Source: Promethearchaeota archaeon (GTDB lineage: Archaea; Asgardarchaeota; Lokiarchaeia; Sigyniarchaeales; SOKP01). Taken from it: 17,666 nucleotides of DNA. A model generated the notes under the pieces. The model did not search any database. It worked only from the letters and a program-made list of their open reading frames with translations, and was not told the origin of the DNA. The first letter of the stretch is position 1, and every line of letters starts with the position of its first letter. The position numbers and the translations under genes are program-made. The stretch is from NCBI GenBank assembly GCA_016926735.1, contig JAFGOA010000082.1:1-17666 (forward strand). Direction: 5' to 3'. Below, piece by piece: positions 77-17,258 of this stretch.

Positions 77-170
77 TAAAAGATAAAAGGATATAAGAAA
101 TTAAGATTAAATCTTTTTTTTTATGATAAGAAGAATATCCTAAAATCTTAAGATAGTAATATTTAAGACA

Positions 171-210
171 ATCATCGTAAAATGGGGGTATTACTAAATT
201 GACGCTAATA
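171..210 (+). repeat. Dispersed cassette-boundary site, copy 1
   Basis: ATCATCG-TAAAATGGGGGTATTACTAA-attgacg-CTAATA. The downstream arm (ATTAAT at 245, continuing to ~340) is homologous to that of copy 5. Confidence 0.9.
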
Positions 211-399
211 CACAATATATTCTATTTCACTAGACAATAGCGGGATTAATGTAAATAACATAATATCCAGTAATATTATTAAACTTTCAAGAGATTCTTA
301 AAAGATATAAAATCAATTGATTCTTAATCTTAAGAGATATTTATGATAAATTCTATATATAATAATTTAAACAAATAATCTTTTTTAAAAAAAGAAACC

Positions 400-786: not shown

Positions 787-1157
787 CTATTTATATATCT
801 TTATTAATATATAAAACTTGATCTCCATTTAAGGTTTTTTTGTTTAATATTACTATCTATTACTAATCCTATCAATGAAGCTTGGAACGTTTTATTAAAG
901 AAATTAAATTATTTTTTTGCTCTTTATATATTATAAGAATAATATCGATTAATTGGGAACTTAGATTTCCCATAAATAACAATAGGAATAATTTAACCTT
1001 AGGGCTGGTCTTTTTGAAAAAAAAGATTAATAATTAGAATAGAAATTACTGAATTTTTATAAATAATTTGAAGGTTATGTAAATACATATATGTTCATTA
1101 TACTTCTATTTATAATATACTTAACAAAATTTTACTATTTTTAAAGGTTATTAAATT

Positions 1158-4100
1158 ATCTTAGAAGAAACTATAAAGGATTTAAATTTTCCAATTATTG
1201 GAATTGGGGCATCAGCAGGAGGTCTTGAAGCATTTGAGCAATTTTTCTCAAATATTTCCTCAGATACTGGTATGGCATTTGTTTTAATATCTCATTTAGA
1301 TCCAAACCATAAAAGTGATTTAACTGATTTAATAAAATTATATACAAAAATGAATTGTATAGAAGTCAATGAAGGTATGAGGATATCACCTAACCATATT
1401 TATATTATTCCTCCCAATTTTAATTTGGAAATAAAAGAGGGTGTATTCTATCTCAAAAAACCCAATATCATTAGGGGATTGAGATTACCAATTGATTTCT
1501 TTTTCAAGTCTTTAGCTTTAGAAAAAAAGGATCAAGCAATAGGAATTGTTCTTTCAGGAACAGGAACAGATGGTACACTTGGTATTAAAGAAATAAACGC
1601 TATTGGAGGATTGGCTATTGTTCAAGATCCGCATTCAGCGAATTATGATGGGATGCCAAAAAGTGTAATAATGAATGCTATTGCAGATTATGTCTTACCA
1701 GTGAATACAATCCCCGAGGTGTTGATAAAATATGTTAATGAAAAATTGAAATATAAAAAAAAAAAAGTTGATATAAAAGATTTAGAGTTTCATAATGATC
1801 TCTCTGAAATATTTACTATTTTAAGTACAAAATTAAATCATGATTTTTCTTGTTATAAAGAAAATACAATGATCAGACGTATAGAGAGAAGAATGGTTAT
1901 TAAACATATTAATAATATACATGATTATATAAATTATCTTCGTAAAAATCCAATCGAAATTGAGGTTCTCTTTAAAGAATTATTAATAGGGGTAACATAT
2001 TTTTTCCGGGATAAAGAAGCATATGATATTTTGAGAAAAAAGGTTATTCCTGAACTTTTTAAAGATTGTACTCAAAATAAAACAATTAAAATTTGGATTC
2101 CAGGATGCTCTACTGGAGAAGAACCATATTCCTTAGCAATATTATTTCAAGAATATTTAGATAAGAATAATAAATCGTGTAAGATACAGATTTTTGGGAC
2201 GGATATTGATGAGGTAGCAATAGAAAAGGCGCGTAATGGAATATATCTAGATAATATTGTAGTTGATGTATCATCTGATCGTCTAAATAAATTTTTTATT
2301 GTGGAAGGTAATAATTTTAAAATAAAACCAATCATAAGAGAAAAACTAGTGTTTGCAGTGCAAGATCTCATAACAGATCCTCCTTTTTCAAATGTAGATT
2401 TGATTGTTTGTAGAAATTTATTGATTTATTTAACACCAGATATCCAAAAAAAAATATTAACATTGTTCTATTATTCTCTTAATTCTGATGGTTATTTATT
2501 TTTAGGTAGCTCAGAATCTATAAGTAATCTATCTCAATTATTCATTGAAATTGACAGAAGATGGAAAATTTATCAATGTAAAAAAGTTGCTCCTTTACTT
2601 TTAGGTATATCAAGACCATTTCCCCCATTAACACATTACACTTTAAGACCCAATAAACGAGATGATTTTAAGAGTCCAGATATAATAAACTATAAGGATT
2701 TAATGGAAGAATTCTTAATAAAAACATATACTCCTCCTTCTATATTAGTGAATGAAAAAGGAGATATTTTATATATTCATGGAAAAGTTAATTCCTATCT
2801 TGATTTACCAGAGGGAGAGGCAAAAATGAATATTTTTGAGATGTCAAAGGATAATTTAAAAATACACTTAGCATCAGGTATAAGAAAAATAAATAAATCT
2901 AATAAACCAATAATATATGAAAATTTATCAATTAGATTGAATGGAAGTATTATTAGATTTAATCTAATGATATCACCAATTAATCAACTTAACTCATTCA
3001 ATGGTTTAATCATGATAACATTTATAGAATTAACGCCTGATCTAATCGCAGAAGAAGAATTAGAAGTTATTGATATAAAGGATACAATTATAGACATTAG
3101 AGTTAAGGAATTAGAGGAAGAATTGCTCTCTACAAAACAATATCTTCAGACAACAATTGAAGAACTTGAGAACACTAATGAAGAATTACAATCATCTAAT
3201 GAAGAACTACAGAGTACAAACGAAGAAATACAAACTTCTAAAGAAGAACTTCAATCTTTAAATGAGGAATTAACTACTGTTAATTCAGAGCTTGAAACTA
3301 AAATAACGGAATTATCAGAGGTTAATTCAGATTTATCTAATTTCATTTCAAGCACTGATATTGCTACTCTCTTCATAGATGGAAATTCTATAATTCAACG
3401 GTTTTCTCCAAATATAAAAGAAATTTTAAATATTATAGAAACAGATATTGGACGCCCTATAGAACACATCTCATCAAATCTCCAATATGATTCCTTAGTT
3501 CAAGATGCTAAAGAAGTCCTTAAAAAATCAATTACATTAGAAAAAGATGTTCAAACAAAAGATAATCAATGGTATAGCATGCGTATAATTCCATACAGGA
3601 CAATTAACAATATTATATCTGGAGTAGTTATAACATTTTTTAATATCTCTATTAGAAAAAAAATAGAAGAAGAAAAGATAGAAACTATGTTATTTGCCGA
3701 AAATATTGTAGAAACAACTAGAACACCATTGTTAGTCATAGATAATAACCTAAAGGTTATTAAAGTAAATTCTGCATTTTGTAAGTTATTCCAAGTCGAT
3801 AAAAAAGAAACAGAAAACAATTTTATTTTTGAATTAGGAAATAAACAATGGGATATCCCAAAATTACGTGAAATCCTGGATAAAATCATTAAAACTCATT
3901 CAAAAATTAAAGATTTTGAAGTAGATCATAATTTTGAAAAAATTGGTCAAAGAATTATGCTTCTTAATGCTAAAGAATTAAAAAGAAAAGAAGATTCTTT
4001 AATATTAATATCCATTGAAGATATAACAGAAAAAAAGGTCGCTAATGATAAATTGATCGAATCAAGAGAAATGTTTAAAGATGCTTACCAAAAGGTTGAA

Positions 4101-4778
4101 TTTTATAAAGATATTTTTATCCATGATATAAATAATATTCTACAAATTATACTTAGTTCTAGCGAACTTATTAAAAATATCCTAAAAAATCCTGAAGGTT
4201 ATGAGAAAATAATAGAAATGAATAATATGATTTTAAATCAAATTAAAAATGGTAAAAATTTAGTAAAAAACATTTCATTATTATCTCAGATAGATCAAAT
4301 TGGAGGAAATAATTATCTTTACCAAATATCTACTTTAATTGATAAGAGTATTGAAAATGTAAGAAATTCGTTTCCTAATAGAAAGATTGATTTTAATCTC
4401 GATTATAATAATAGAGAGTTAAAGGGATATATTAATGATCTATTATATAATGCAATAGAGAATATATTTATTAATTCAATCAAACATAGTGATAAAAACT
4501 CTATTCAAATTAATATTAAAGTTTCTAAAGAGGAAATTCAAAATGTAAATTATATTAAGATTGAGGTTGAAGATAACGGTCCAGGAATACCAGATGATCT
4601 AAAAAATCTAATTTTTAAAAATAAAATTAAATTCAGTGAAGTAGGATTGGGAATGGGATTGTATATTGTGAAAAAAATAATTGAAAGTATAAACGGAAAG
4701 ATTTATATCAAAAATCGTGTTAAAAACGATTATTCTAAAGGATTAAATGTGATCATATTATTAAGAGAAGAGGAATAA
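1158..4778 (+). CDS. CheB methylesterase-CheR methyltransferase-coiled coil-PAS-PAS-histidine kinase fusion protein
   Basis: CheB: GIGASAGG (in frame from 1200, upstream of the called ATG at 1272), ISHLDP, GTGTDG. CheR: WIPGCSTGEEPYS, GTDID, CRNLLIY. Coiled coil NEELQSSNEELQSTNEE, then PAS domains. Kinase: H-box FIHDINNILQ, EDNGPGIP, GLGMGL. The start is uncertain: the frame opens after TAA 1152-1154 with no ATG/GTG/TTG before 1272. Confidence 0.93.
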   Translation: MLEETIKDLNFPIIGIGASAGGLEAFEQFFSNISSDTGMAFVLISHLDPNHKSDLTDLIKLYTKMNCIEVNEGMRISPNHIYIIPPNFNLEIKEGVFYLKKPNIIRGLRLPIDFFFKSLALEKKDQAIGIVLSGTGTDGTLGIKEINAIGGLAIVQDPHSANYDGMPKSVIMNAIADYVLPVNTIPEVLIKYVNEKLKYKKKKVDIKDLEFHNDLSEIFTILSTKLNHDFSCYKENTMIRRIERRMVIKHINNIHDYINYLRKNPIEIEVLFKELLIGVTYFFRDKEAYDILRKKVIPELFKDCTQNKTIKIWIPGCSTGEEPYSLAILFQEYLDKNNKSCKIQIFGTDIDEVAIEKARNGIYLDNIVVDVSSDRLNKFFIVEGNNFKIKPIIREKLVFAVQDLITDPPFSNVDLIVCRNLLIYLTPDIQKKILTLFYYSLNSDGYLFLGSSESISNLSQLFIEIDRRWKIYQCKKVAPLLLGISRPFPPLTHYTLRPNKRDDFKSPDIINYKDLMEEFLIKTYTPPSILVNEKGDILYIHGKVNSYLDLPEGEAKMNIFEMSKDNLKIHLASGIRKINKSNKPIIYENLSIRLNGSIIRFNLMISPINQLNSFNGLIMITFIELTPDLIAEEELEVIDIKDTIIDIRVKELEEELLSTKQYLQTTIEELENTNEELQSSNEELQSTNEEIQTSKEELQSLNEELTTVNSELETKITELSEVNSDLSNFISSTDIATLFIDGNSIIQRFSPNIKEILNIIETDIGRPIEHISSNLQYDSLVQDAKEVLKKSITLEKDVQTKDNQWYSMRIIPYRTINNIISGVVITFFNISIRKKIEEEKIETMLFAENIVETTRTPLLVIDNNLKVIKVNSAFCKLFQVDKKETENNFIFELGNKQWDIPKLREILDKIIKTHSKIKDFEVDHNFEKIGQRIMLLNAKELKRKEDSLILISIEDITEKKVANDKLIESREMFKDAYQKVEFYKDIFIHDINNILQIILSSSELIKNILKNPEGYEKIIEMNNMILNQIKNGKNLVKNISLLSQIDQIGGNNYLYQISTLIDKSIENVRNSFPNRKIDFNLDYNNRELKGYINDLLYNAIENIFINSIKHSDKNSIQINIKVSKEEIQNVNYIKIEVEDNGPGIPDDLKNLIFKNKIKFSEVGLGMGLYIVKKIIESINGKIYIKNRVKNDYSKGLNVIILLREEE

Positions 4779-5077
4779 CTTTATTAGGAATATCCATAAT
4801 AGGGGACAGTCAAATTGAACTACTCACCCCTAAACAGTACCGAGTATTTTTTTTTTGTTACATTTTTCATCACTTCCTTTGAATCGGAAATATAGCTAAA
4901 TTATAGCGGTTCTTCCATGTAAAGCATGATCCAATTGAGTGTACATTGAATTAAAAAATAAATAGGACATTAAGAAAAAAAATATAATGAAGATGTTTTT
5001 TTTTTTAGTCAACTAAGAATATTGATACTCAAAAATCGGTTTATTTTAATAATCCCATAATTATTTTTCATTTTAAT

Positions 5078-5107: not shown

Positions 5108-5351
5108 TCTATCTTTTTCAATACCATAGACCTTGTACTATAGCTATAGATTATTTAAGAATATTTATTTAAACAATCATAAAGTAGATTTTATGTATGT
5201 GACAAAATAATCTTGAGTATTATCAAAATAATCGATAATAATCTAAATAATTGTGATTAAAAAAATTGATAATTAAAATCATCATTATATTTTATTAAAA
5301 CTTAGCTAGAGACTACTGAATAATTTAATTTATATAATTTGAGAAAAATTT

Positions 5352-5759
5352 TTAAATTTCAACTTGGATCTTTTCAATATCCATCTTTTCTTTTTCTAAT
5401 TGTTTAATTTCTTTTAGTATAACTTTTTTTTTAGTTTTTTCTGCCTTATCAATTGCTTTTATTTTTATTAAAAATTCTTTTTCTTTTTCTTTTTTTAGAT
5501 TTGTTAAATCATTTTCTATACTTTTAGTGGAAGTAATTAGTTCTTTTACTTTTTCTGTCCATTTATTCTTCTCTTGAATATCTTTTTCAAGATCTACTTG
5601 TTCTGAATTTAGTTTATCATCCATATTGCTAATTTGTTTATCATATTTCTCCTTAACTTCATCTTTTATAGAAGCATGTTTATTTTTTGCTTCTTCTTCT
5701 ATACGAGATATTTCGTCATATTTTGCCATAATCTGACCGTTTATAAGTTCTTTTGACAT
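5352..5759 (-). CDS. Hypothetical coiled-coil (Lys/Glu-rich) protein
   Basis: Highly charged, helical-looking ORF. ATG at 5759 is preceded by SD-like GATGTGA; the ORF track's GTG at 5768 lies within that SD. Confidence 0.75.
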   Translation of the reverse strand: MSKELINGQIMAKYDEISRIEEEAKNKHASIKDEVKEKYDKQISNMDDKLNSEQVDLEKDIQEKNKWTEKVKELITSTKSIENDLTNLKKEKEKEFLIKIKAIDKAEKTKKKVILKEIKQLEKEKMDIEKIQVEI

Positions 5760-5933
5760 TTTTTTCACATCTATTATTTACTTAATTTTATTGATATATA
5801 ATATTATTATTTGGTAATATTTAAATATTCTCATATGGTAATATTAATATATAATAATAAAAATAATTTGAAACAGGATCTAATTTATAAAATTTATCTA
5901 TTTAATTAGTAAAAAGAGATTTAGGATAATATC

Positions 5934-6266
5934 ATGAGTATAAATGTATTAAGAATGACTTCTAAATTTTTTAAATTATTGAGTGATGTTAATGTATTGA
6001 AAATAATTTTACTATTGAAAAATAATGAGAAATCTTTCCAAGTAATTCAAAATAATTTAAATATTACACAATCTCACCAATCTCATTTAATGAGAAAACT
6101 TATTGATTCAAATATTTTAATTGTTCGAAGAGAACAAAGAAAAAAAATTTATAAAATAAAAAATAAAATAATATTTAGAATTCTTGGGGAAGCAAAAGGG
6201 TTTCTAACAGAAATACAAAAAGAAAAAATTGACGAATTAAAAGATTTTAATCTTTATGATATTTAA
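5934..6266 (+). CDS. ArsR/SmtB-family winged-HTH transcriptional regulator
   Basis: FFKLLSDVNVLKIILLL...ITQSHQSHLMRKL...RREQRKKIY matches the ArsR wHTH pattern. Confidence 0.85.
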   Translation: MSINVLRMTSKFFKLLSDVNVLKIILLLKNNEKSFQVIQNNLNITQSHQSHLMRKLIDSNILIVRREQRKKIYKIKNKIIFRILGEAKGFLTEIQKEKIDELKDFNLYDI

Positions 6267-6273
6267 TTTATAA

Positions 6274-6558
6274 TATTATTGTTTAAGAATATTAGTTCTT
6301 ACTGATAGTATGCATCTTATATCATATAATCAAAAATCATTTAATATTACATATCTAACACTTCAAAGCCATCTTAAATTTTTCGAAAGATTATCCAATC
6401 AAATCCAACTCATAAAAAGAATTAAAATAGGAAAAGAAATCATCTATTTTTTTTAGATCATCTCTAAAAAAGAATATACTTTATTGAGAAATCAAGATCA
6501 GAAAATAAAAGAAATAATTAAACAATTTAAAAATAATGGAGTCAAGGTATCAATATGA
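6274..6558 (+). pseudogene. Degraded winged-HTH regulator fragment
   Basis: Manual translation gives ...QKSFNITYLTLQSHLKFFE...LIKRIKIGKEIIYFF* (TAG 6454-6456, after a T8 run), then EYTLLRNQDQKIKEIIKQFKNNG further downstream. Resembles archaeal double-wHTH regulators. Confidence 0.4.
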
Positions 6559-6629
6559 TAATTTTATTGTAAAATATAATTATTTTCACTTTTACACGAT
6601 AATTTGTTTTTTAACAATGAAAATATTTA

Positions 6630-6695
6630 TTTCATGGAAAAAGTGAAGTTTTTAATGGAATTTGGAAGTGAAATGGGGATATCACTAAACACCTT
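6630..6695 (+). repeat. Boundary site copy 2 (left arm and core only)
   Basis: TTTCATGGA...TTTTAATGGA...GTGAAATGGGGATATCACTAA with ATGG at 6634/6655/6673 (spacing 21/18). The right half, CTAATAA, is not conserved. Confidence 0.85.
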
Positions 6696-6890
6696 CTGGT
6701 GAATGATTAACCTTATATCATTAAGAATTTAAGAAGATGAATAAATATCTTAATGATAAAAAAAGAAATAGGAAAATTTGGACATTTTATTTGGATTTTA
6801 ATCTCCGTCTTGTTCTTTACTTGTTATAAATTTATATAGATGATTGAAATACAATACAAAAAAATATTAGATTTCATTGATTTGATTTAG

Positions 6891-7039
6891 AGTTTTCCAA
6901 TTATTGAAAAAGGTGATATATAAAAAATATTATTTTGGTATGAGTCCATCAGATCCATACTTAAATATCACTTCTCTAACCTCCTATTTAGGAAAAAAAA
7001 AGACTTAGAAGTTAATATATATTCTTTTTTTAATTTTTA
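6891..7039. repeat. Empty-site copy of the locus at 12385-13408
   Basis: 6891-7003 aligns to 12385-12500, and 7005-7039 is identical (35 bp) to 13374-13408. Confidence 0.9.
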
Positions 7040-7333
7040 ATCATAGATCAAAATAATCAAGAAAAAAAATAAAAATATAATATTTATTTCAATATTATTG
7101 TAGTATTGACTTAATGGACCCAAAACCTAAATGGGAACAATATATCCGTCTAAAATGCATATTTTTCCAATTTAGATTTGAAAATCGAAAAGATTAGTTT
7201 CCTCATTCAATATTATCATCTAATAAAAGTTATATTAGATTAGATCGGAAGATAAAAGAGGAAAATTATGAAATAAAATAAAATGACTCTACTGTTAAAT
7301 TCTAATTTTAAAAGAAAATAAAACGAAATATAT

Positions 7334-7705
7334 TTAAGAAAGTTTCATTATTTTTCCAGATTTTATTAGTCTACAAAAATATGGGATATCTTCCTTAGGA
7401 TTACCAATCATTTTACTTAAAATAGCTTCTTTTTTATATCTTGGATGAAAATGATGTGGTCTGGTAGAAACTACCCATCTATCATCATAATTATCAAAAC
7501 GACAACGATCCAATTCTATATTTGAAAAAATAATAGAATAACTATATTGTTCATAGTTATTAAACTAAATATACACAATATATCCATTAGTGAGTTCTAA
7601 ATTAATTCTTGGATCCTCTTGATTTATAGCAATTCTTGATATAGATTTTTTTAATTGTTTTTCTACGATAATCTGTGAAATATTTATTTTTTGTAAAGCA
7701 TTCAT
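7334..7705 (-). pseudogene. TumE/DUF6516-like toxin interrupted by an in-frame TAG at codon 47
   Basis: Manual translation: MNALQKINISQ...NGYIVYI*FNNYEQYSYSIIFSNIELDRCRFDNYDDRWVVSTRPHHFHPRY...KLS*. The RxDN...STxPHHxH motif is DUF6516-like. The ATG overlaps the upstream gene's TGA (TGATG). Confidence 0.75.
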
Positions 7706-7947
7706 CAATTTTTACTCCATGATATTTTCAATTCCTGTAACTCATCTCGTTTATCAAGGATATTTCTTAGAGAAATAGCATCTGGCTCTGCTTCTTGGAG
7801 AGTTCCATCTGCGGCATGTTTTAAGAAAAGTTCAGCTGATGTATAATTCCATTTTGATAATAGTGTATTTATCGTATCAGTGATTAATTTAAGTTTTGAA
7901 TCCAGTAAATCAAAAAGTAGATCCTTATCAACTAAAATTGATGTCAT
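7705..7947 (-). CDS. Putative antitoxin (TumA-like small helical protein)
   Basis: 80-aa acidic helical protein (LLSKWNYTSAELFL), translationally coupled to the DUF6516-like gene. Confidence 0.7.
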   Translation of the reverse strand: MTSILVDKDLLFDLLDSKLKLITDTINTLLSKWNYTSAELFLKHAADGTLQEAEPDAISLRNILDKRDELQELKISWSKN

Positions 7948-8241: not shown

Positions 8242-8320
8242 TAAAAAAAGTTTTTTTTAATTACATTTTTCTGATATTTATATCATAGATAAAAATTTTT
8301 TTATTAAAATCAAGAATAGG

Positions 8321-8394
8321 TTTTAATGGACAATTGAGTGATTTTAATGGAAAATCAACGTGAAATGGGGGTATTACTAAATTCATACTAATAA
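8321..8394 (+). repeat. Boundary site copy 3 (complete)
   Basis: TTTTAATGGA x2, then CGTGAAATGGGGGTATTACTAA-attcata-CTAATAA. ATGG at 8326/8347/8365; ATTAAT 40 bp after CTAATA. Confidence 0.95.
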
Positions 8395-8547
8395 GCTACT
8401 AGTATTATTTTATTATTAATTGGAATGATTAATGGAAATAAAAATTATAAACAAAAATAAAATCAATATATTAATATACTTGGGGATTAAAGATTTAATT
8501 ATTATTATAATAATCCTAAAATTCTATAATAAAGATGTGAAAATAAT

Positions 8548-11500: not shown

Positions 11501-11994
11501 TTTTAAAAATGATTAATTTTTTTCATAAGTCTACTTTGAATTATTATATACTTCCTGGAAATTCTAATAAACCAGATTATAACAAACTTAGTCAACTATT
11601 TTTTGGATGTAGTAAAGAAACATTCTATGAGAAATTAGTTAATAATCAAATTAAATTAGATTCCATTAGACGACCTACTTTAGTTTTGATTGGAGATATT
11701 GCATATATTTTTTATAAATGGAATGATGAAAAATCTAATGAAGATAAGTTCATTCTGAAAGATATCTATAATGCATTTATAACAAAAACGAATCAATATC
11801 AAAAAATTAATTTATCAACTCAAATAACCCAGGATGATTTTCTGAATATTATTATCATTTTTACTAATAATAAACTTCTAGATTTATCATATAATTCTGA
11901 AAATACAGAGTGGAGAATAATAAATGAAAATAATTTAAAATGCTTTTATCAATCCAATTCTTTATTTTATTTATTAGATCAGATATTTTACTAA
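8548..11994 (+). CDS. Large leucine-rich-repeat protein (about 35-37 23-aa LRRs) with an uncharacterised C-terminal domain
   Basis: Repeated LPxSIGNLxNLxxLxLxxNxL units. The ORF track starts at TTG 8590, but the frame is open from 8533, with ATA at 8548 after SD-like GATGTGA. Confidence 0.95.
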   Translation: MVRLKKEEEVFLEDLRHHLRRSIFEYIPKVPKIDPKTTGIKIKRDRIIGISIVKNINISLFPESIKFLTKLREIYIRSLSPVHFPDSIKKLKSLKILYLRHVRLFEFPEGIGKLENLQYLNMGWNDLKEISESIGNLKKLNILIITWNHKLMHLPESIGNLNNLQILKLKNNYLFDIPDSIGELENLHSLNLSNNKIEELPNAIGNLIHLKELNLSNNKIKELPNTFGNLINLKELNFDLNHIEEIPKSFKKLRNLQSLNFKRNYLKEIPKSIRKLEKLQCINLEECTLKKIPKSIGKLKCLKELNLEYNYLTELPNTIGNLINLEVLNLKDNKLTELPNTIGNLFNLKKINLKSNKLAKLPNTIGNLITLEVLNLKDNKLTELPNSIGNLINLKILNLKSCRLKDLPNTFGNLIHLKELVLNNVRFAKFPEYIYKLRNLKKVEINGIISDSIIEISESIGDLINLEELNLHLIRISSSLKIPETIGKLKNIKKIYLNHLQELPKTIGDLENLQILRLRSSQLKELPNSIGNLKNLQRLGLSSSLLRKLPNSIGNLKNLKKLLLIDSELTELPETIGDLLNLEEISLNKNKLIKLPESIGQLKNLKELDISYNHLVKILESIDKLSNLQTLILNNNNITHIPESIGNLSNLQTLILNNNNLTHIPESIGNLSNLQTLILNNNNLTHIPESIGNLSNLQTLILNNNNLTDIPESIGNLKKIRELNLGHNQLLELPETIGNLIKIKELNLEHNKLLELPETIGSLKYILKLSLNNNLLKSIPDLIGYLNNLIELNLEYNTLQQLPEDIGKLSNLRALILNNNYLIDIPESIGNLKHLKEFNLSYNQLVELPNTLGDLNRISELNLSHNLLNVIPDSLGNLRTLRKLNLEGNHLINIPDSIKNLNLQWPIAKNLSKYFDIKIWEKLEIFFFKKDSQNILQTISQPYVIYENRLSLLNEVIKNLMIKYYSEGITTQTYDPNINTIIYNILKMINFFHKSTLNYYILPGNSNKPDYNKLSQLFFGCSKETFYEKLVNNQIKLDSIRRPTLVLIGDIAYIFYKWNDEKSNEDKFILKDIYNAFITKTNQYQKINLSTQITQDDFLNIIIIFTNNKLLDLSYNSENTEWRIINENNLKCFYQSNSLFYLLDQIFY
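10402..10691 (+). repeat. Near-perfect 69-bp tandem repeat (4 units plus a partial) inside the LRR gene
   Basis: CCTGAATCTATAGGTAATTTATCAAACCTACAAACACTTATTTT(G/A)AATAATAATAATCTTACACATATT units at ~10402, 10471, 10540 and 10609. Confidence 0.95.
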
Positions 11995-12002
11995 GATATA
12001 TG

Positions 12003-12044
12003 ATTCAGCGTGAAATGGGGGTATTACTAAATGCACTCTAATAA
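12003..12044 (+). repeat. Boundary site copy 4
   Basis: ATTCAGCGTGAAATGGGGGTATTACTAA-atgcact-CTAATAA, starting 8 bp after the LRR stop codon. Confidence 0.95.
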
Positions 12045-12270
12045 ATGATTTCGGTTATATTTTTTAAGAAATGAGAATATTATTAATATATAAGAAATAT
12101 TTAGTAAGATATCTAAATCTTTAAAGAATCTCTACCTATTTTATATCAATTCTACGTAAATTATCAGTAGTTAGTAAGAATAGATGATTTTTTTTCTCTG
12201 CAATTTCCTCAAAATTTTAATTAGAGTTTTATAAAATAAAAAAGATATAAGTAAATTAATTTATATCTAA

Positions 12271-12327
12271 GGTTTTTATGGAAAAGTTGATAAATATAAT
12301 AAATGTTTACTAAAGCAGAACTGATAA
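12271..12327 (+). repeat. Degenerate boundary site
   Basis: GGTTTTTATGGAAAAG arm, then AAATGTTTACTAA-agcagaa-CTGATAA. The N7 geometry is kept but the G-run is lost. Confidence 0.5.
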
Positions 12328-12500
12328 GGTTTACTTATTTTGGTTAATTCTTTCTATTAGTTCTTATTAAGCTTTATAATTTTAAGTTTTCCGATTATTG
12401 GAAAAAAGTGATATCTAAACAATATTGTTTTGGGCAGGAGTTCATCAGATCTATTCTTAAATATCACTCCTATAACCTTCTACTTAAAAAAAAAAAAGGA

Positions 12501-13328
12501 TTAAATATTATTAATATCTTCTATAATTTTGAACCCTCTCTTTTGAAGGCTTTTCTTAAGAGCTTCACTCAGTTTTACTACTTTAGACTCATAAAATAGA
12601 ATGGCGGGGATACAAACCGCAATAGATATAAATGGCATATTTATCATTAGGATAAGCCCAAGTAGCCAATCTGAAGGATTTAAATCCAAAATAAAATTTT
12701 CTATAGCTAATAGTCCGATTGCAAAGAGCGTACTAATCCCTACGTATCCTTTTACTATACTATAAATGTCCTTATATACGCCTTCTATATCAGGTAATAA
12801 TCTAGAACCCTCTTTCCTTGATTTTTGTGAGCACATAATACTTGAATCCTGTAAAAGCCATATTGGTGCAATAATGATGATTAAAAAGGGTATAATAAAG
12901 AGAGTTGCTATTGTATTCACTATCAGATCACTCCCCGAAAGAGAAAGAATAATATTACGATGAATAAGTTGTGAGAGAAATGTTCCAATGCTAAAGCCAA
13001 ATAATCCCATAATTATAACTCTCGCCATCATAGTGCTAAATCTTAGCTCTTTATGTGGATTTTGAAGAATCGCATATCTGAAACGCTTTAGTTTCATTAT
13101 ATTATGTAATTTAAAAAATATAATTGACATAGGGACTTCAAGAAGGATTATCAAAACAATCATAATAATTGGAGAAAATACAAAAAAATAGAGAATATCA
13201 ATATATGCATTTTCTCCAGGGATTAATAAAGTGATATCATTAGCATCCTGACTTGCTATAAGTAAAACCATTAATATCGGAACTTGGAATACTATAGAAA
13301 AAGCTATCATCTTATAGTTTCGTTTCAT
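12501..13328 (-). CDS. Hypothetical multi-pass membrane protein (~6 TM)
   Basis: 275-aa ORF with about six hydrophobic segments, ATG start, and a T-run immediately after the stop. Confidence 0.85.
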   Translation of the reverse strand: MKRNYKMIAFSIVFQVPILMVLLIASQDANDITLLIPGENAYIDILYFFVFSPIIMIVLIILLEVPMSIIFFKLHNIMKLKRFRYAILQNPHKELRFSTMMARVIIMGLFGFSIGTFLSQLIHRNIILSLSGSDLIVNTIATLFIIPFLIIIIAPIWLLQDSSIMCSQKSRKEGSRLLPDIEGVYKDIYSIVKGYVGISTLFAIGLLAIENFILDLNPSDWLLGLILMINMPFISIAVCIPAILFYESKVVKLSEALKKSLQKRGFKIIEDINNI

Positions 13329-13373
13329 TTATTAAGCTCATCTTTGACTAAAAAATTTTAATTAATAAAAGAA

Positions 13374-13408
13374 TTAGAAGTTAATATATATTCTTTTTTT
13401 AATTTTTA
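13374..13408 (-). promoter_or_regulatory. Putative archaeal BRE/TATA promoter for the membrane-protein gene
   Basis: Minus strand AAAAAAAGAA-TATATATTAA about 55 bp upstream of ATG 13328. An identical block sits at 7005-7039. Confidence 0.45.
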
Positions 13409-13869
13409 CTGATTCTTATTAATGAGGAATGGAATACAACATTTAAGTTATTTAAATCTATTCTTGACAAAGATCTTATCTCATTTCAAAAAATAAAGAA
13501 GATTTTTATTAAAATTTTTAAATTAATTGAAAATGATAAAGAATATTAATAACTTTAGAATTAAATATGTTTAAAATTGTATTAATTCCAGAATTTATCC
13601 CATATATCCAATAAAAAATAACTAATACAAATCAAATAAAAAATAATATTGATAAATATTCTGCCTCATTATTATTAATAAAACTATTTTTCATGGAAAT
13701 TTTAATAAAATCGTTATTAAATAGAAAATTAAACTTTTGATTATAGAGAAATTTGAATTATTAGAGAACATCGAATAGTATTTTCTATTATAAACCAATT
13801 ACATTGTAAAAGATATATATCTTTAGAGTTATACAAAGCTTATTATTAGAAAATTATCAGTTATATATT

Positions 13870-15210
13870 ATGATTCCGACAATAGGTTTTTTCATAGATT
13901 GGATCTCTTCTGCTAATCATATTGAATTAATATTAAGTTTAGAAGAAGCTGCTAAAAAAGCTGGAGTTAATTTATTGACAATAATGGGAGGTGCATTAAA
14001 TTCTCCAAAAATATATGAAGCTAAAAGTAATAAACTTTACAACAATCCTAAAGATATACCAATTGACGGACTTATAATAGAATCTGGTTTATTAGGATTG
14101 TATTGTAATTATCTTCAAATGAAGGAGTTTATCAGTAGATTCAATCATATTCCAGTGGTAAGTCTATCAAAAAAGATCGAAAGCATTCATACAATTATTA
14201 TTGATGCTTCTAAAGGATTTAATGAATTAATATCTCACGTTATAAAAAAGCATAAATGTCAAAATTTTGCGTATATTAGTGGTCCAAAAGAAAATGACGA
14301 CTCTAATAAAAGATTAGAAGTTTTTAAATCAACCCTCAAGGAAAATCAAATCACCTGGAATGAAAAGGCGATTTATTATGGTAAATTTATAAACACATCT
14401 GGAAATGAAGCAATTAATTATTTTTTTGATGACCTCAATATTTCACCCGACGTTATTGTTGCGGCAAATGATGATATGGCAATGGGTGCAATTAATGAAT
14501 TAAAAAAACGTAAAATTCTAATCCCAGATACCATAAAAATAATCGGTTTTGATGATCAAATTAACGCAAAATTTTTCAATCCTCCACTTTCAACCGTAAA
14601 AATCCCAACGAATCAAATATGTGAAAAGGCAATCGAAGTAATTAAGGATTTAATAGATGGAAAAAAAAAGGATGAATTAATTGAAATTCCAACAAAAATG
14701 ATCATACGTTCATCCTGTGGATGCGATAATTCAAGAACAAATGAATCAAATTCTGATAATTTCAATCTTCTTCCAAAAAAACAAAAAATAATTATTAATT
14801 TTATAGATGCATATAGAAATATAGGCTACACTCGTGATATAGGCCTTCTTGAAAAAGTAATTCCATATCTATTTGATAATACTAACATATTATTATGCAT
14901 TATTTCATTCTTCCAAAATAATTCCTCAGAAAATCTTAGTCCAGTATTAAAATATATGAATAATGAAGCAAAAATCTCAAAATTTAAAGAAATATTTAAA
15001 AATCCTTATCATTTATTAAAATCTCTTCTGAGATCAGAAAACCCTATCAATATTCGTCTATTTTCTATCATTTTTCAAGATAAAGTAATTGGAACTATCA
15101 TATATCAAGTGAAATTAGATGGAAATCTCTTAGGAAGCGCAATGCGGACCAATTTACTAGATAATTTAGCAAAAACATTATATATCCATCAATTTTTGAA
15201 TCATTATTAA
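13870..15210 (+). CDS. LacI/GalR-type sugar-binding (periplasmic-binding-protein fold) sensor protein lacking the N-terminal HTH
   Basis: Begins directly at TIGFFID. Motifs AYISGP, AANDDMAMG, IIGFDD, PPLSTV, IIRSSCGC. C-terminal GAF-like region, no output domain. Confidence 0.88.
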   Translation: MIPTIGFFIDWISSANHIELILSLEEAAKKAGVNLLTIMGGALNSPKIYEAKSNKLYNNPKDIPIDGLIIESGLLGLYCNYLQMKEFISRFNHIPVVSLSKKIESIHTIIIDASKGFNELISHVIKKHKCQNFAYISGPKENDDSNKRLEVFKSTLKENQITWNEKAIYYGKFINTSGNEAINYFFDDLNISPDVIVAANDDMAMGAINELKKRKILIPDTIKIIGFDDQINAKFFNPPLSTVKIPTNQICEKAIEVIKDLIDGKKKDELIEIPTKMIIRSSCGCDNSRTNESNSDNFNLLPKKQKIIINFIDAYRNIGYTRDIGLLEKVIPYLFDNTNILLCIISFFQNNSSENLSPVLKYMNNEAKISKFKEIFKNPYHLLKSLLRSENPINIRLFSIIFQDKVIGTIIYQVKLDGNLLGSAMRTNLLDNLAKTLYIHQFLNHY

Positions 15211-15514
15211 ATTTCATAGTCAGTAGAAGATATCTATTTCTTTAAAATCTTTTTTATCTTTTGATTTTATTTATTTTAATTTTTAATGAAAATTCTATGA
15301 AAATAGCTATAGAACGGTAATTTCTAATTCCGAATTTAGTGAAAATTTCATAAAAAATTATTTTTTTATTATAATATTATTGATATATATGTCTAAATAA
15401 TGTAAATCAACTTGAAACAGTTATCAGTTTTTACATAGAATTAATCATAAATCAGAAAAATATGTCTTTATGATATGATTATTGGAATATTTAACTAAAA
15501 CATAAAAGACCTCC

Positions 15515-15757: not shown

Positions 15758-15930
15758 AATTTTGAATATCTAAAATTAGATAAATTATAATTATCTTTCA
15801 TAATCGAATAGTTATTACGATCTTATATAAAATAATCAGGAATAAAATTCTCTATATATAATAAAAAAATATCTATAAAATCTTATTGAAAAAAAGGTCT
15901 TTATATCATCATATATTCGTATTAGAAATA

Positions 15931-15971
15931 ATCATCGTGAAATGGGGGTATCACTAAAATCGCGCTAATAA
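15931..15971 (+). repeat. Boundary site copy 5
   Basis: ATCATCGTGAAATGGGGGTATCACTAA-aatcgcg-CTAATAA. ATTAAT 40 bp after CTAATA, and the downstream arm is homologous to copy 1. Confidence 0.95.
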
Positions 15972-16188
15972 ACGATATCAATTGGATTCTCTAAATTTGA
16001 AGGGATTAATATGAATAATATAATGTTCCAATACGATTGCTTAACATTCAGAAGACTCATAAAAGAAATGTATTTATTTGATAATTCTTAAATATTATTC
16101 TTAATTGCTATAACTATAATTATTATTTGAAATAAAAGATAAATATAAAAGGCTTTTCTATCATTTCCTTCTATGATTGTGATTAAAA

Positions 16189-16800: not shown

Positions 16801-16875
16801 TTCTGTAACTATATTACATTTTTCTGATAACTATCTAAAAGATAAAAATTATTTTTATTATAATTAAGAAAAGGT

Positions 16876-16949
16876 TTTTAATGGAAAATGTAATAATTTT
16901 AATGGAAAATGGATCTGAAATGGGGTTATCACTAAGCTCACTCTAAAGA
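16876..16949 (+). repeat. Boundary site copy 6
   Basis: TTTTAATGGA x2, then TGAAATGGGGTTATCACTAA-gctcact-CTAAAGA. ATGG at 16881/16902/16920 (spacing 21/18); ATTAAT at +40 (16983). Confidence 0.92.
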
Positions 16950-17258
16950 AGAAAAACAATTATGTTATTACAAGAGAAGATTATTAATTAATAAACTAAA
17001 GAATTTTAGTATAAAATTTAAATTTCTTAAAAAATAAATAAAAAATAGCATACCAATTGACTCTTTAATTAAAATTTGAAAAAAATCGAATTTATAAATT
17101 GGGATTTAATAAATAGAGAAATCGATAAATATAAAATTGATTATTTAATTTTTCCCCTTTTTTAATCAACTTTTTTAAAGATGAGGACTTTATAAAAATT
17201 TTTATTTCTTAATATTATTATTATGAAATGATGCAACACTCAAATAAATTCCTTCTTG

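Follow-up and report, generated by a model that had tools for sequence, protein, structure and literature searches.

A candidate transposase-less gene-carrying element beside an empty copy of its target on a Lokiarchaeial contig

The contig JAFGOA010000082.1 of Promethearchaeota archaeon (Lokiarchaeia; Sigyniarchaeales; SOKP01), assembly GCA_016926735.1, was analyzed over its entire length of 17,666 nt, which is referred to below as the window. It is contig C112 of the source genome (G000), a metagenome assembly of 3.88 Mb in 238 contigs with a G+C content of 26% and a completeness of 99.3%; coordinates given without a contig name are window positions. The window contains two copies of a shared non-coding sequence (S) of about 250 nt. 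In the filled copy (F0) an 865-bp segment with the gene of a 275-aa membrane protein stands between the flanks, and in the empty copy (E0) the same flanks are joined directly. The evidence tilts towards the segment being an element of the mobile insertion cassette (MIC) type, which carries a gene but no transposase and is located beside a target that is unoccupied or was exactly vacated. One terminus of the segment matches the terminal repeat of a family of MITEs (miniature inverted-repeat transposable elements), and a member of this family has inserted into a third copy of S in a congeneric genome.

Empty and filled copies of one non-coding sequence

The two copies in the window are composed as follows.

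6885-6994, no strand: left-flank part of S in E0 (96/112 identical to 12385-12498 of F0, 99/112 to the copy in the congener G001)
6995-7002: single 8-mer AAAAAAAG of E0, duplicated around the gene segment in F0
7003-7044: right-flank part of S in E0 (39/42 identical to 13372-13413, 38/42 to G001)
7045-7117: right context of E0, common to the G001 copy and not to F0; includes the unoccupied MITE target AAATAATC at 7051-7058
12379-12490: left flank of S in F0
12491-12498: left 8-bp direct repeat of F0, AAAAAAAG, candidate target-site duplication
12499-13363, minus strand: 865-bp gene-carrying segment, candidate transposase-less transposon (MIC-like)
12501-13328, minus strand: 275-aa multi-pass membrane protein of an Asgard-restricted family (from the translation)
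13364-13371: right 8-bp direct repeat of F0, AATAAAAG
13372-13413: right flank of S in F0, with an A-rich/ATATATAT stretch

Positions 6885-7044 correspond to the left flank (12379-12498) fused to the right flank (13372-13413) of the membrane-protein gene. In blastn searches within the window, 6885-7025 matched 12379-12522 (80.6% over 144 columns, E 1e-29) and 6995-7044 matched 13364-13413 (92%, E 1.5e-13). Global alignment of the flanks proper gave the 96/112 identical positions on the left (about 86%, with 2 gap columns) and the 39/42 on the right, where identity is unbroken over 35 nt (7005-7039, equal to 13374-13408). The segment missing from E0 contains the minus-strand open reading frame (ORF) 12501-13328 and extends from 2 nt past its stop codon to 35 nt upstream of its start codon; apart from 12499-13363, E0 and F0 are collinear. 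The join in E0 lies inside the 8-mer AAAAAAAG, exactly where the left and right homologies overlap. The two 8-mers that enclose the segment in F0 match at 7/8 positions, and the exact part of this repeat is 5 nt, AAAAG. An earlier sequence-only reading of the window had described E0 as the left flank joined directly to the right flank at an AAAAG-type microhomology, with an identical right part of 35 bp, a diverged left part and some 870 bp with the gene absent. The alignments bear this description out, with 865 bp as the exact size and the 8-mer present on both sides of the segment in F0.

The same reading placed both versions downstream of a boundary site, and the cores of the boundary repeats described below do lie upstream of both (6670 for E0, which begins at 6885, and 12012 for F0, which begins at 12379). 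The stretches from boundary repeat to flank are non-homologous between E0 and F0, as 183/300 and 10/300 shuffles reached the observed score. What the two copies have in common is therefore a patch some 250 nt long rather than a cassette frame, and duplication of a whole cassette was rejected. The imperfect inverted repeats reported near 12471 and 13372 are 12/15 complementary, and the two flanks offer so many pairs of 15-mers that chance alone should produce such a match; E0 retains both arms, so they are not the ends of the missing segment. The palindrome TTTTCCAATTATTGGAAAA was considered as a common operator and rejected, since its third copy is coding sequence (the third copy of TTTTCCAATTATTGGAA, at 1181, belongs to NFPIIGIGASAGG of the CheB domain and is unrelated).

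A third copy of S (F1) was found on contig C120 (locus L075) of G001. It has the filled arrangement, with 1245 nt that are 94.4% identical to window 12172-13413 (the F block). For comparison, the 24 other listed aligned blocks of at least 250 nt between G000 and G001 are 60-79% identical. To the right of the end of F0 at 13413, F1 continues with sequence homologous to the right context of E0 (7045-7117 matches G001:C120 at 85.9% and 83.6%), and 60/70 positions are identical after removal of a MITE and one duplicate 8-mer from the G001 sequence. Since F1 continues in this E0-like manner, S is about 250 nt long and the right side of F0 is truncated. A 32-mer in the right flank is invariant across E0, F0 and F1, and the remainder differs by 8-14%.

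The distribution of S is narrow. A 166-nt query from E0 fell below E 1e-10 only at the E0 and F0 loci in the whole 3.88-Mb genome, and the other 40 among the matches listed had E values of at least 0.0066. The left flank is present in 2/135 family genomes, G000 and G001, and was not found in the other 133. A metagenome scan with one exact 25-nt flank pattern yielded a single locus, which has 99.97% identity to G001:C120. When 185,579 species genomes were scanned with the invariant 32-mer, only the G001 contig matched. In none of these searches (own genome, 135 family genomes, metagenome pattern, species genomes) were the flanks found around another cargo gene.

Several possible roles of S were considered. 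One frame in the left flank is open in all three copies, yet most substitutions in the aligned copies are amino-acid-changing, and a small peptide was rejected. A structured RNA was not supported either: the three-sequence consensus fold has covariation in 1/32 pairs (minus strand) and 1/18 pairs (plus strand), single-sequence folds of the left flank have z-scores from -1.7 to +0.5, and Rfam gave nothing relevant (its single match in the window, E 0.81, lies elsewhere). No RNA run was listed as containing 6500-7400. The A-rich/ATATATAT stretch in the right flank of F0 could be an archaeal B recognition element and TATA box on the minus strand, and the flank may act as a promoter of the gene.

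The 275-aa protein has no assigned Pfam family. Homologs were found in 38/61 related genomes, the next-best beyond G001 being 40% identical, and the nearest Atlas clusters consist of unnamed archaeal proteins (Promethearchaeota/Thorarchaeota). The G001 copy of the gene is intact (253/276 positions identical, 92% amino acid identity) and differs from the F0 copy by 17 synonymous and 23 non-synonymous codons. No similarity was seen among the flanks of paralogs of this gene, and the viral collection contained neither a relative of the protein nor a MITE end.

The ends of the segment and a 121-bp family of miniature elements

F1 differs from E0 by the gene segment and, about 60 nt away from it, by an extra 121 nt that represent a MITE. 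The F1 insertion has perfect 12-bp terminal inverted repeats (GATTAAATGTTA ... TAACATTTAATC) and a perfect 8-bp target duplication, AAATAATC, of which E0 keeps a single copy at 7051-7058. The following copies of the family were located.

2524-2644 on L075 (G001:C120): the copy inserted in F1
39789-39909 on G001:C11: second G001 copy, 97-98% identical, in a different context and with its own duplication TAAATTAC
Several contigs of genome G015: at least four full copies

The family is short, multi-copy and without an ORF, and has perfect terminal inverted repeats and target duplications; the duplication is a perfect 8/8 in 5 of the 6 full-length copies aligned. Matches at E <= 1e-5 were obtained in 6/135 family genomes; besides G001, copies are present in G015 and G069. 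In G015, where the family is abundant, 21 matches to a 23-mer of the MITE end were counted, versus 1 for the reversed control. G000 itself has no exact left end and no match at E <= 1e-5. Besides the gene segment, E0 and F1 are thus set apart by a member of this family that inserted into F1. E0 has therefore kept the states that precede insertion, and the locus was a site of activity of the family.

The two termini of the gene segment compare with the family as follows.

12499-12510, plus strand: left terminus GATTAAATATTA, 11/12 identical to the MITE terminal repeat GATTAAATGTTA; includes the stop codon 12501-12503
13352-13363, plus strand: right terminus AAAATTTTAATT (in G001 AAAACTTTAATT), 8/12 identical to the family repeat TAACATTTAATC

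With its 11/12 match, the left terminus directly adjoins the 8-mer AAAAAAAG. A 12-mer with at most one mismatch to the family repeat occurs 69 times per strand in the 3.88 Mb of G000. It stands at an ORF end in the same register in 1/2733 long ORFs, namely the 275-aa gene, and within 12 nt either way of an ORF end in 3/2733. Null frequencies were drawn empirically from random 865-bp segments of the G000 genome, and since the features were noticed post hoc they overstate significance. A match of at least 11/12 to the family repeat at either end was seen in 0.003% (3e-5) of 400,000 such segments. The two ends of the gene segment form a 12/17 inverted repeat, and 12/17 or better was reached in 0.10% of random segments. 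Flanking 8-mers matching at 7/8 or better occurred in 0.19% of the 400,000 segments, or 0.96% when both were A+T-rich. The 12/17 ends and the 7/8 flanking repeat were found jointly in 0/400,000.

If the segment is an element, its history may be reconstructed as follows. A transposase of the MITE family would move the 865-bp element in trans, and its insertion into S would duplicate the 8-mer AAAAAAAG. E0 would be a target that had always stayed free of the element; less likely, E0 once contained it and lost it precisely between the two 8-mers. The insertion would have taken place in a G001-like lineage, from which the filled allele would then have been transferred into the present contig beside the resident empty S. 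The absence of the MITE family from G000, together with the 94.4% identity of the F block, fits this order of events. As the F block is 94% identical to the congener and other blocks only 60-79%, the filled allele was probably imported in a recent exchange of genes between members of the genus, together with some 330 nt on its left (S and sequence upstream of it) and 50 nt on its right.

Mobile insertion cassettes, whose founding example is MIC231 of Bacillus cereus, are derived from insertion sequences (IS) and carry passenger genes between terminal inverted repeats without a transposase. The segment resembles them in its single passenger gene (one long ORF; three short overlapping plus-strand ORFs were outside the scan), in having no transposase gene, in a terminus common to a MITE family, in a flanking 8-bp duplication of the length made by that family, and in the existence of an unoccupied target copy. 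It differs from them in its degenerate right terminal repeat (8/12), its one insertion context, the failure to find a cognate transposase or parent IS in G001 and G015, and its host, an Asgard archaeon. From archaeal MITEs, with which it shares the left terminus of the 121-bp family (G001, G015, G069), it differs in that its 865 bp are nearly all one ORF and the MITE carries no gene. MICs and MITEs are described, in a passage of PMC3129680, as IS-related objects that can be activated by a cognate transposase. Term searches of the literature, which were not exhaustive, found no description of MIC-type elements in Asgard archaea. Most likely the segment adds a new Asgard case to a class already known, that of elements which have terminal inverted repeats and a gene but lack a transposase.

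Several observations weigh against an origin by transposition, beginning with the post hoc discovery of its features. The 8/12 match of the right end is at chance level and is met once per 73 nt. In F1 the left end is less perfect (GATTTAAATATT, with one extra T) and the flanking 8-mers match at only 6/8 positions. The left terminal repeat covers the last codons and the stop codon of the gene, which are homologous to paralog C-termini; the alignments to paralogs extend to residues 272-274 of 275. The match to the terminal repeat could thus be a rare coincidence of an Asn-Ile-stop ending. The flanking repeat has the 8 bp expected of the family's target duplication, and the same repeat is also expected under deletion. 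A copy of the segment in a second context was not found among protein homologs, family genomes, the 32-mer scan and the viral collection, nor in metagenomes, which were covered by one exact flank pattern; F0 and F1 both lie in S. No transposase or parent IS was found beside the MITE ends in G001 and G015, where the assemblies are fragmented and two ends coincide with contig ends. Solo or truncated ends beside genes for PALP, FeoB and other proteins, considered as further gene-carrying elements, proved to be partial MITEs.

Further candidates were discarded. One MITE end lies next to a 279-aa ORF that exists in multiple copies; this ORF shows no transposase signature, and its second copy lacks such an end. 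A scan of G000 for end pairs with an 8-bp repeat returned 22 candidates, which looked like noise (no control scan was made).

Alternative explanations and the boundary repeats

The main rival, possible but less likely, is simple loss, in which S and a native gene were duplicated together and the gene of one copy was deleted by slippage or illegitimate recombination between AAAAAAAG and AATAAAAG. E0 would then be a scar, and the left end would resemble the terminal repeat of the MITEs by coincidence. As with replication slippage, for which the 8-mers are a possible substrate, one copy of a short repeat (AAAAG exact, 7/8 overall) is left right at the join. The E0 interval is moreover mosaic, with patches homologous to three other contigs, and decaying, as the in-frame stop in its TumE-like gene indicates; this too counts against transposition. 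Deletion is also favored by another deletion-like difference from G001 at 12031-12165, by the unconvincing right end of the segment, by a gene C-terminus that is native up to the stop codon, and by the single known genomic context of the gene. Slippage, however, predicts neither a transposon end at the start of the deleted segment nor inverted-repeat ends. Deletion leaves unexplained that an 11/12 match to a transposon end stands exactly beside the 8-mer, that the segment ends form a 12/17 inverted repeat, and that the repeat has the length of the family's duplication. It must also excise almost exactly one transcription unit, and the sole other direct-repeat-flanked difference between E0 and F1 is an insertion in F1 and not a deletion in E0. 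Artefact is hardly credible. E0, or its linkage to F0, would then be a strain chimera or a collapsed or expanded repeat, as a repeat-rich contig in a metagenome assembly of 238 contigs may suggest. The left flanks of E0 and F0 have diverged by 14%, though, and E0 has its own right context (7045-7117), which is found in G001 but not in F0; it is therefore separate DNA rather than F0 joined wrongly. Independent assemblies, G001:C120 and a metagenome contig, contain the filled arrangement, and all sampled words of 6500-7400 were present in one run, possibly the source of the DNA.

The sequence-only reading had further proposed a reusable promoter-terminator chassis, and a related idea is an integron-like docking site that captures different genes by site-specific recombination. 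Its distinction between empty and filled versions of a nearly exact single-gene unit stands; the reusable chassis does not, and this explanation is regarded as very unlikely. It draws on the cassette-like array of the contig, with six same-strand boundary repeats unique to it, on the toxin-antitoxin pairs between such repeats on the syntenic G001 contig, on the single-gene blocks of 89-99% identity common to congeners, and on the 32-nt core of the right flank, invariant in three copies whose remainder differs by 8-14%. Integron-type arrays, mostly without an integrase, are moreover enriched in Asgard archaea according to the section of PMC9668308 consulted here, where clusters of attC sites without integrase (CALINs) are reported as common in Asgard metagenome-assembled genomes and a missing integrase as common in archaeal ones. 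The check proposed with the chassis, a search for the flanks around different genes, went against it: in the genomes and the metagenome pattern scan listed above only E0, F0 and F1 were recovered, F1 with the same gene, so that the flanks are known empty or with the 275-aa gene and never with other cargo. The stretches between boundary repeat and flank, being non-homologous between copies, also speak against it, as do the properties of the boundary repeats themselves, which are located as follows.

111-276, 6603-6756, 8297-8457, 11945-12109, 15880-16037 and 16851-17012, plus strand: boundary repeats of the window
94-257 on G000:C168: further boundary repeat of the genome
6670-6688, plus strand: boundary-repeat core upstream of E0
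12012-12030, plus strand: boundary-repeat core upstream of F0

The core of the repeat is GTGAAATGGGGGTATTACTAAAT, preceded by two TTTTAATGGAA motifs 21 nt apart; its strict form, AAATGGGGNTATNACTAA, has six plus-strand copies in the window and is absent from all other contigs of the genome. Stop codons are conserved in all three plus-strand frames (TGA, ACTAA, CTAATAA). The repeat is genus-specific, with convincing copies in G000 (seven, including the one on C168), G001 and G003, and matches in other genera are confined to a 19-mer. Sequence is conserved from about -100 to +170 nt, more in some pairs, and the homology between copies is mosaic, reaching about -280 and +230 nt. Weaker nhmmer matches were noted on contigs C133, C190, C85 and C158. 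A role as promoter, insulator or recombination site is possible. Single-stranded DNA folds of the six sites on both strands, made without a dedicated attC model, gave no common hairpin, and the RNAalifold consensus of 15 aligned repeats contained 0 pairs. An integron integrase (IntI) was not found in the 238-contig genome, where TIGR02249 scored 46 bits at best against a cut-off of 265 and PF00589 identified a single tyrosine recombinase (309 aa, on C228). With no hairpin, no consensus pairs and no integrase, an attC or integron nature of the repeats was rejected. The contig thus resembles integron cassettes and CALINs in its array context, its same-strand repeats, the toxin-antitoxin genes of the related array and the lack of a nearby integrase. 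It differs from them in that its boundary repeats are conserved in sequence rather than in structure, that the genome yielded no IntI, that the difference between filled and empty copy lies away from the boundary repeats, and that the flanks are not common to other cassettes.

A broader conjecture, which is thought improbable, is that the contig and its relatives form a gene-exchange platform new to Lokiarchaeia, of which the filled/empty pair would be one snapshot. It builds on arrays punctuated by a repeat confined to the genus, about 170-400 nt long and conserved in sequence rather than in structure, with TTTTAATGGAA motifs phased at 21 nt and stop codons of all three frames in its core. 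It builds further on the lack of a dedicated integrase and on single-gene blocks of 89-99% identity, one of them with the candidate transposase-less element, between species whose other common blocks are 60-79% identical. Under such a platform S would, with the same small likelihood, be a preferred docking sequence and not a chance target.

Further observations were made at boundary repeats. About 130 nt of F0 between the boundary core and the 94% block (12031-12165, compared with L075 at about 3900) are absent from F1. This extra sequence is followed by a degenerate remnant of the right arm of a second boundary repeat, and represents a further rearrangement at a boundary repeat. The L075 array between boundary repeats contains three MazE/PIN pairs, a ParE toxin gene, a DUF308 membrane protein and a GNAT-histone-deacetylase fusion. 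The further sequence of contig C168 of G000 includes a gene of CDC48-N-like type and a pair resembling ParDE.

Neighboring genes and exchange within the genus

Besides the 275-aa membrane protein, the contig encodes a CheB-CheR-PAS-histidine-kinase, a 1134-aa leucine-rich-repeat protein, a periplasmic-binding-type protein and several small ORFs; no tRNA gene was found in the window. Single-gene blocks of the window are 89-99% identical to G001 or G003 and lie on different contigs there.

298-996: block with a 128-aa ORF (400-786), 90% identical to G001
1081-4814: CheB-CheR-kinase, 92% identical to G001
5332-6417: block with the ORFs 5352-5768 and 5934-6266, 99% identical to G003
12172-13413: F block, 94% identical to G001
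13688-15235: binding-protein gene, 97% identical to G003 and 91% to G001

On comparison of the sequences, these blocks suggest recent gene-by-gene exchange within the genus. No end signature common to the high-identity blocks of the window was seen.

In the inter-repeat interval of E0, a two-gene module on the minus strand (7346-7947) consists of a TumE-like toxin gene that is interrupted by an in-frame stop (7346-7708) and an intact 80-aa gene upstream of it (7705-7947). The module is homologous to G000:C15:1506-2110, where the intact copy has a Pfam TumE match. The in-frame stop in the window copy shows that the inter-repeat interval around E0 is decaying. The E0 unit is directly followed by 164 nt of non-coding sequence (7114-7277) that are 73% identical to G000:C170:2678-2841.

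Two other repeats were observed. One of about 130-150 nt (4810-4958) follows the CheB-CheR-kinase gene directly and has at least eight copies in G003 at 91-98% identity; it is probably another small mobile element. A short repeat with CCTTAGGGCTGGTCTTT is present at 994-1078 and on L075 at about 2150-2250, with 88-93% identity to G001:C168 and G003:C482. On G001:C120 it also stands next to a fragment of an ISL3/Mutator-like transposase, and it may represent the end of an IS. In the 1168-aa signaling protein, the CheB domain (1153-1272) begins upstream of the first ATG (IILEETIKDLNFPIIGIGASAGG...). Past the preceding stop, its frame offers none of the start codons ATG, GTG and TTG, so that the protein has a non-canonical start or a truncated N-terminus.

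If simple loss were true, E0 would be an ordinary deletion scar; a reusable expression chassis is unsupported either way. If the segment is a MIC-type element, then the element, its target duplication and an unoccupied target would stand on one contig, as a worked example of the movement of a single gene in an Asgard archaeon. Its ends are common to a MITE family, and the transposase of this family can now be searched for. For some genes of the contig, exchange between congeners would be much younger than the divergence of the remaining genome, and such exchange bears on estimates of gene flow in the archaeal lineage closest to eukaryotes.

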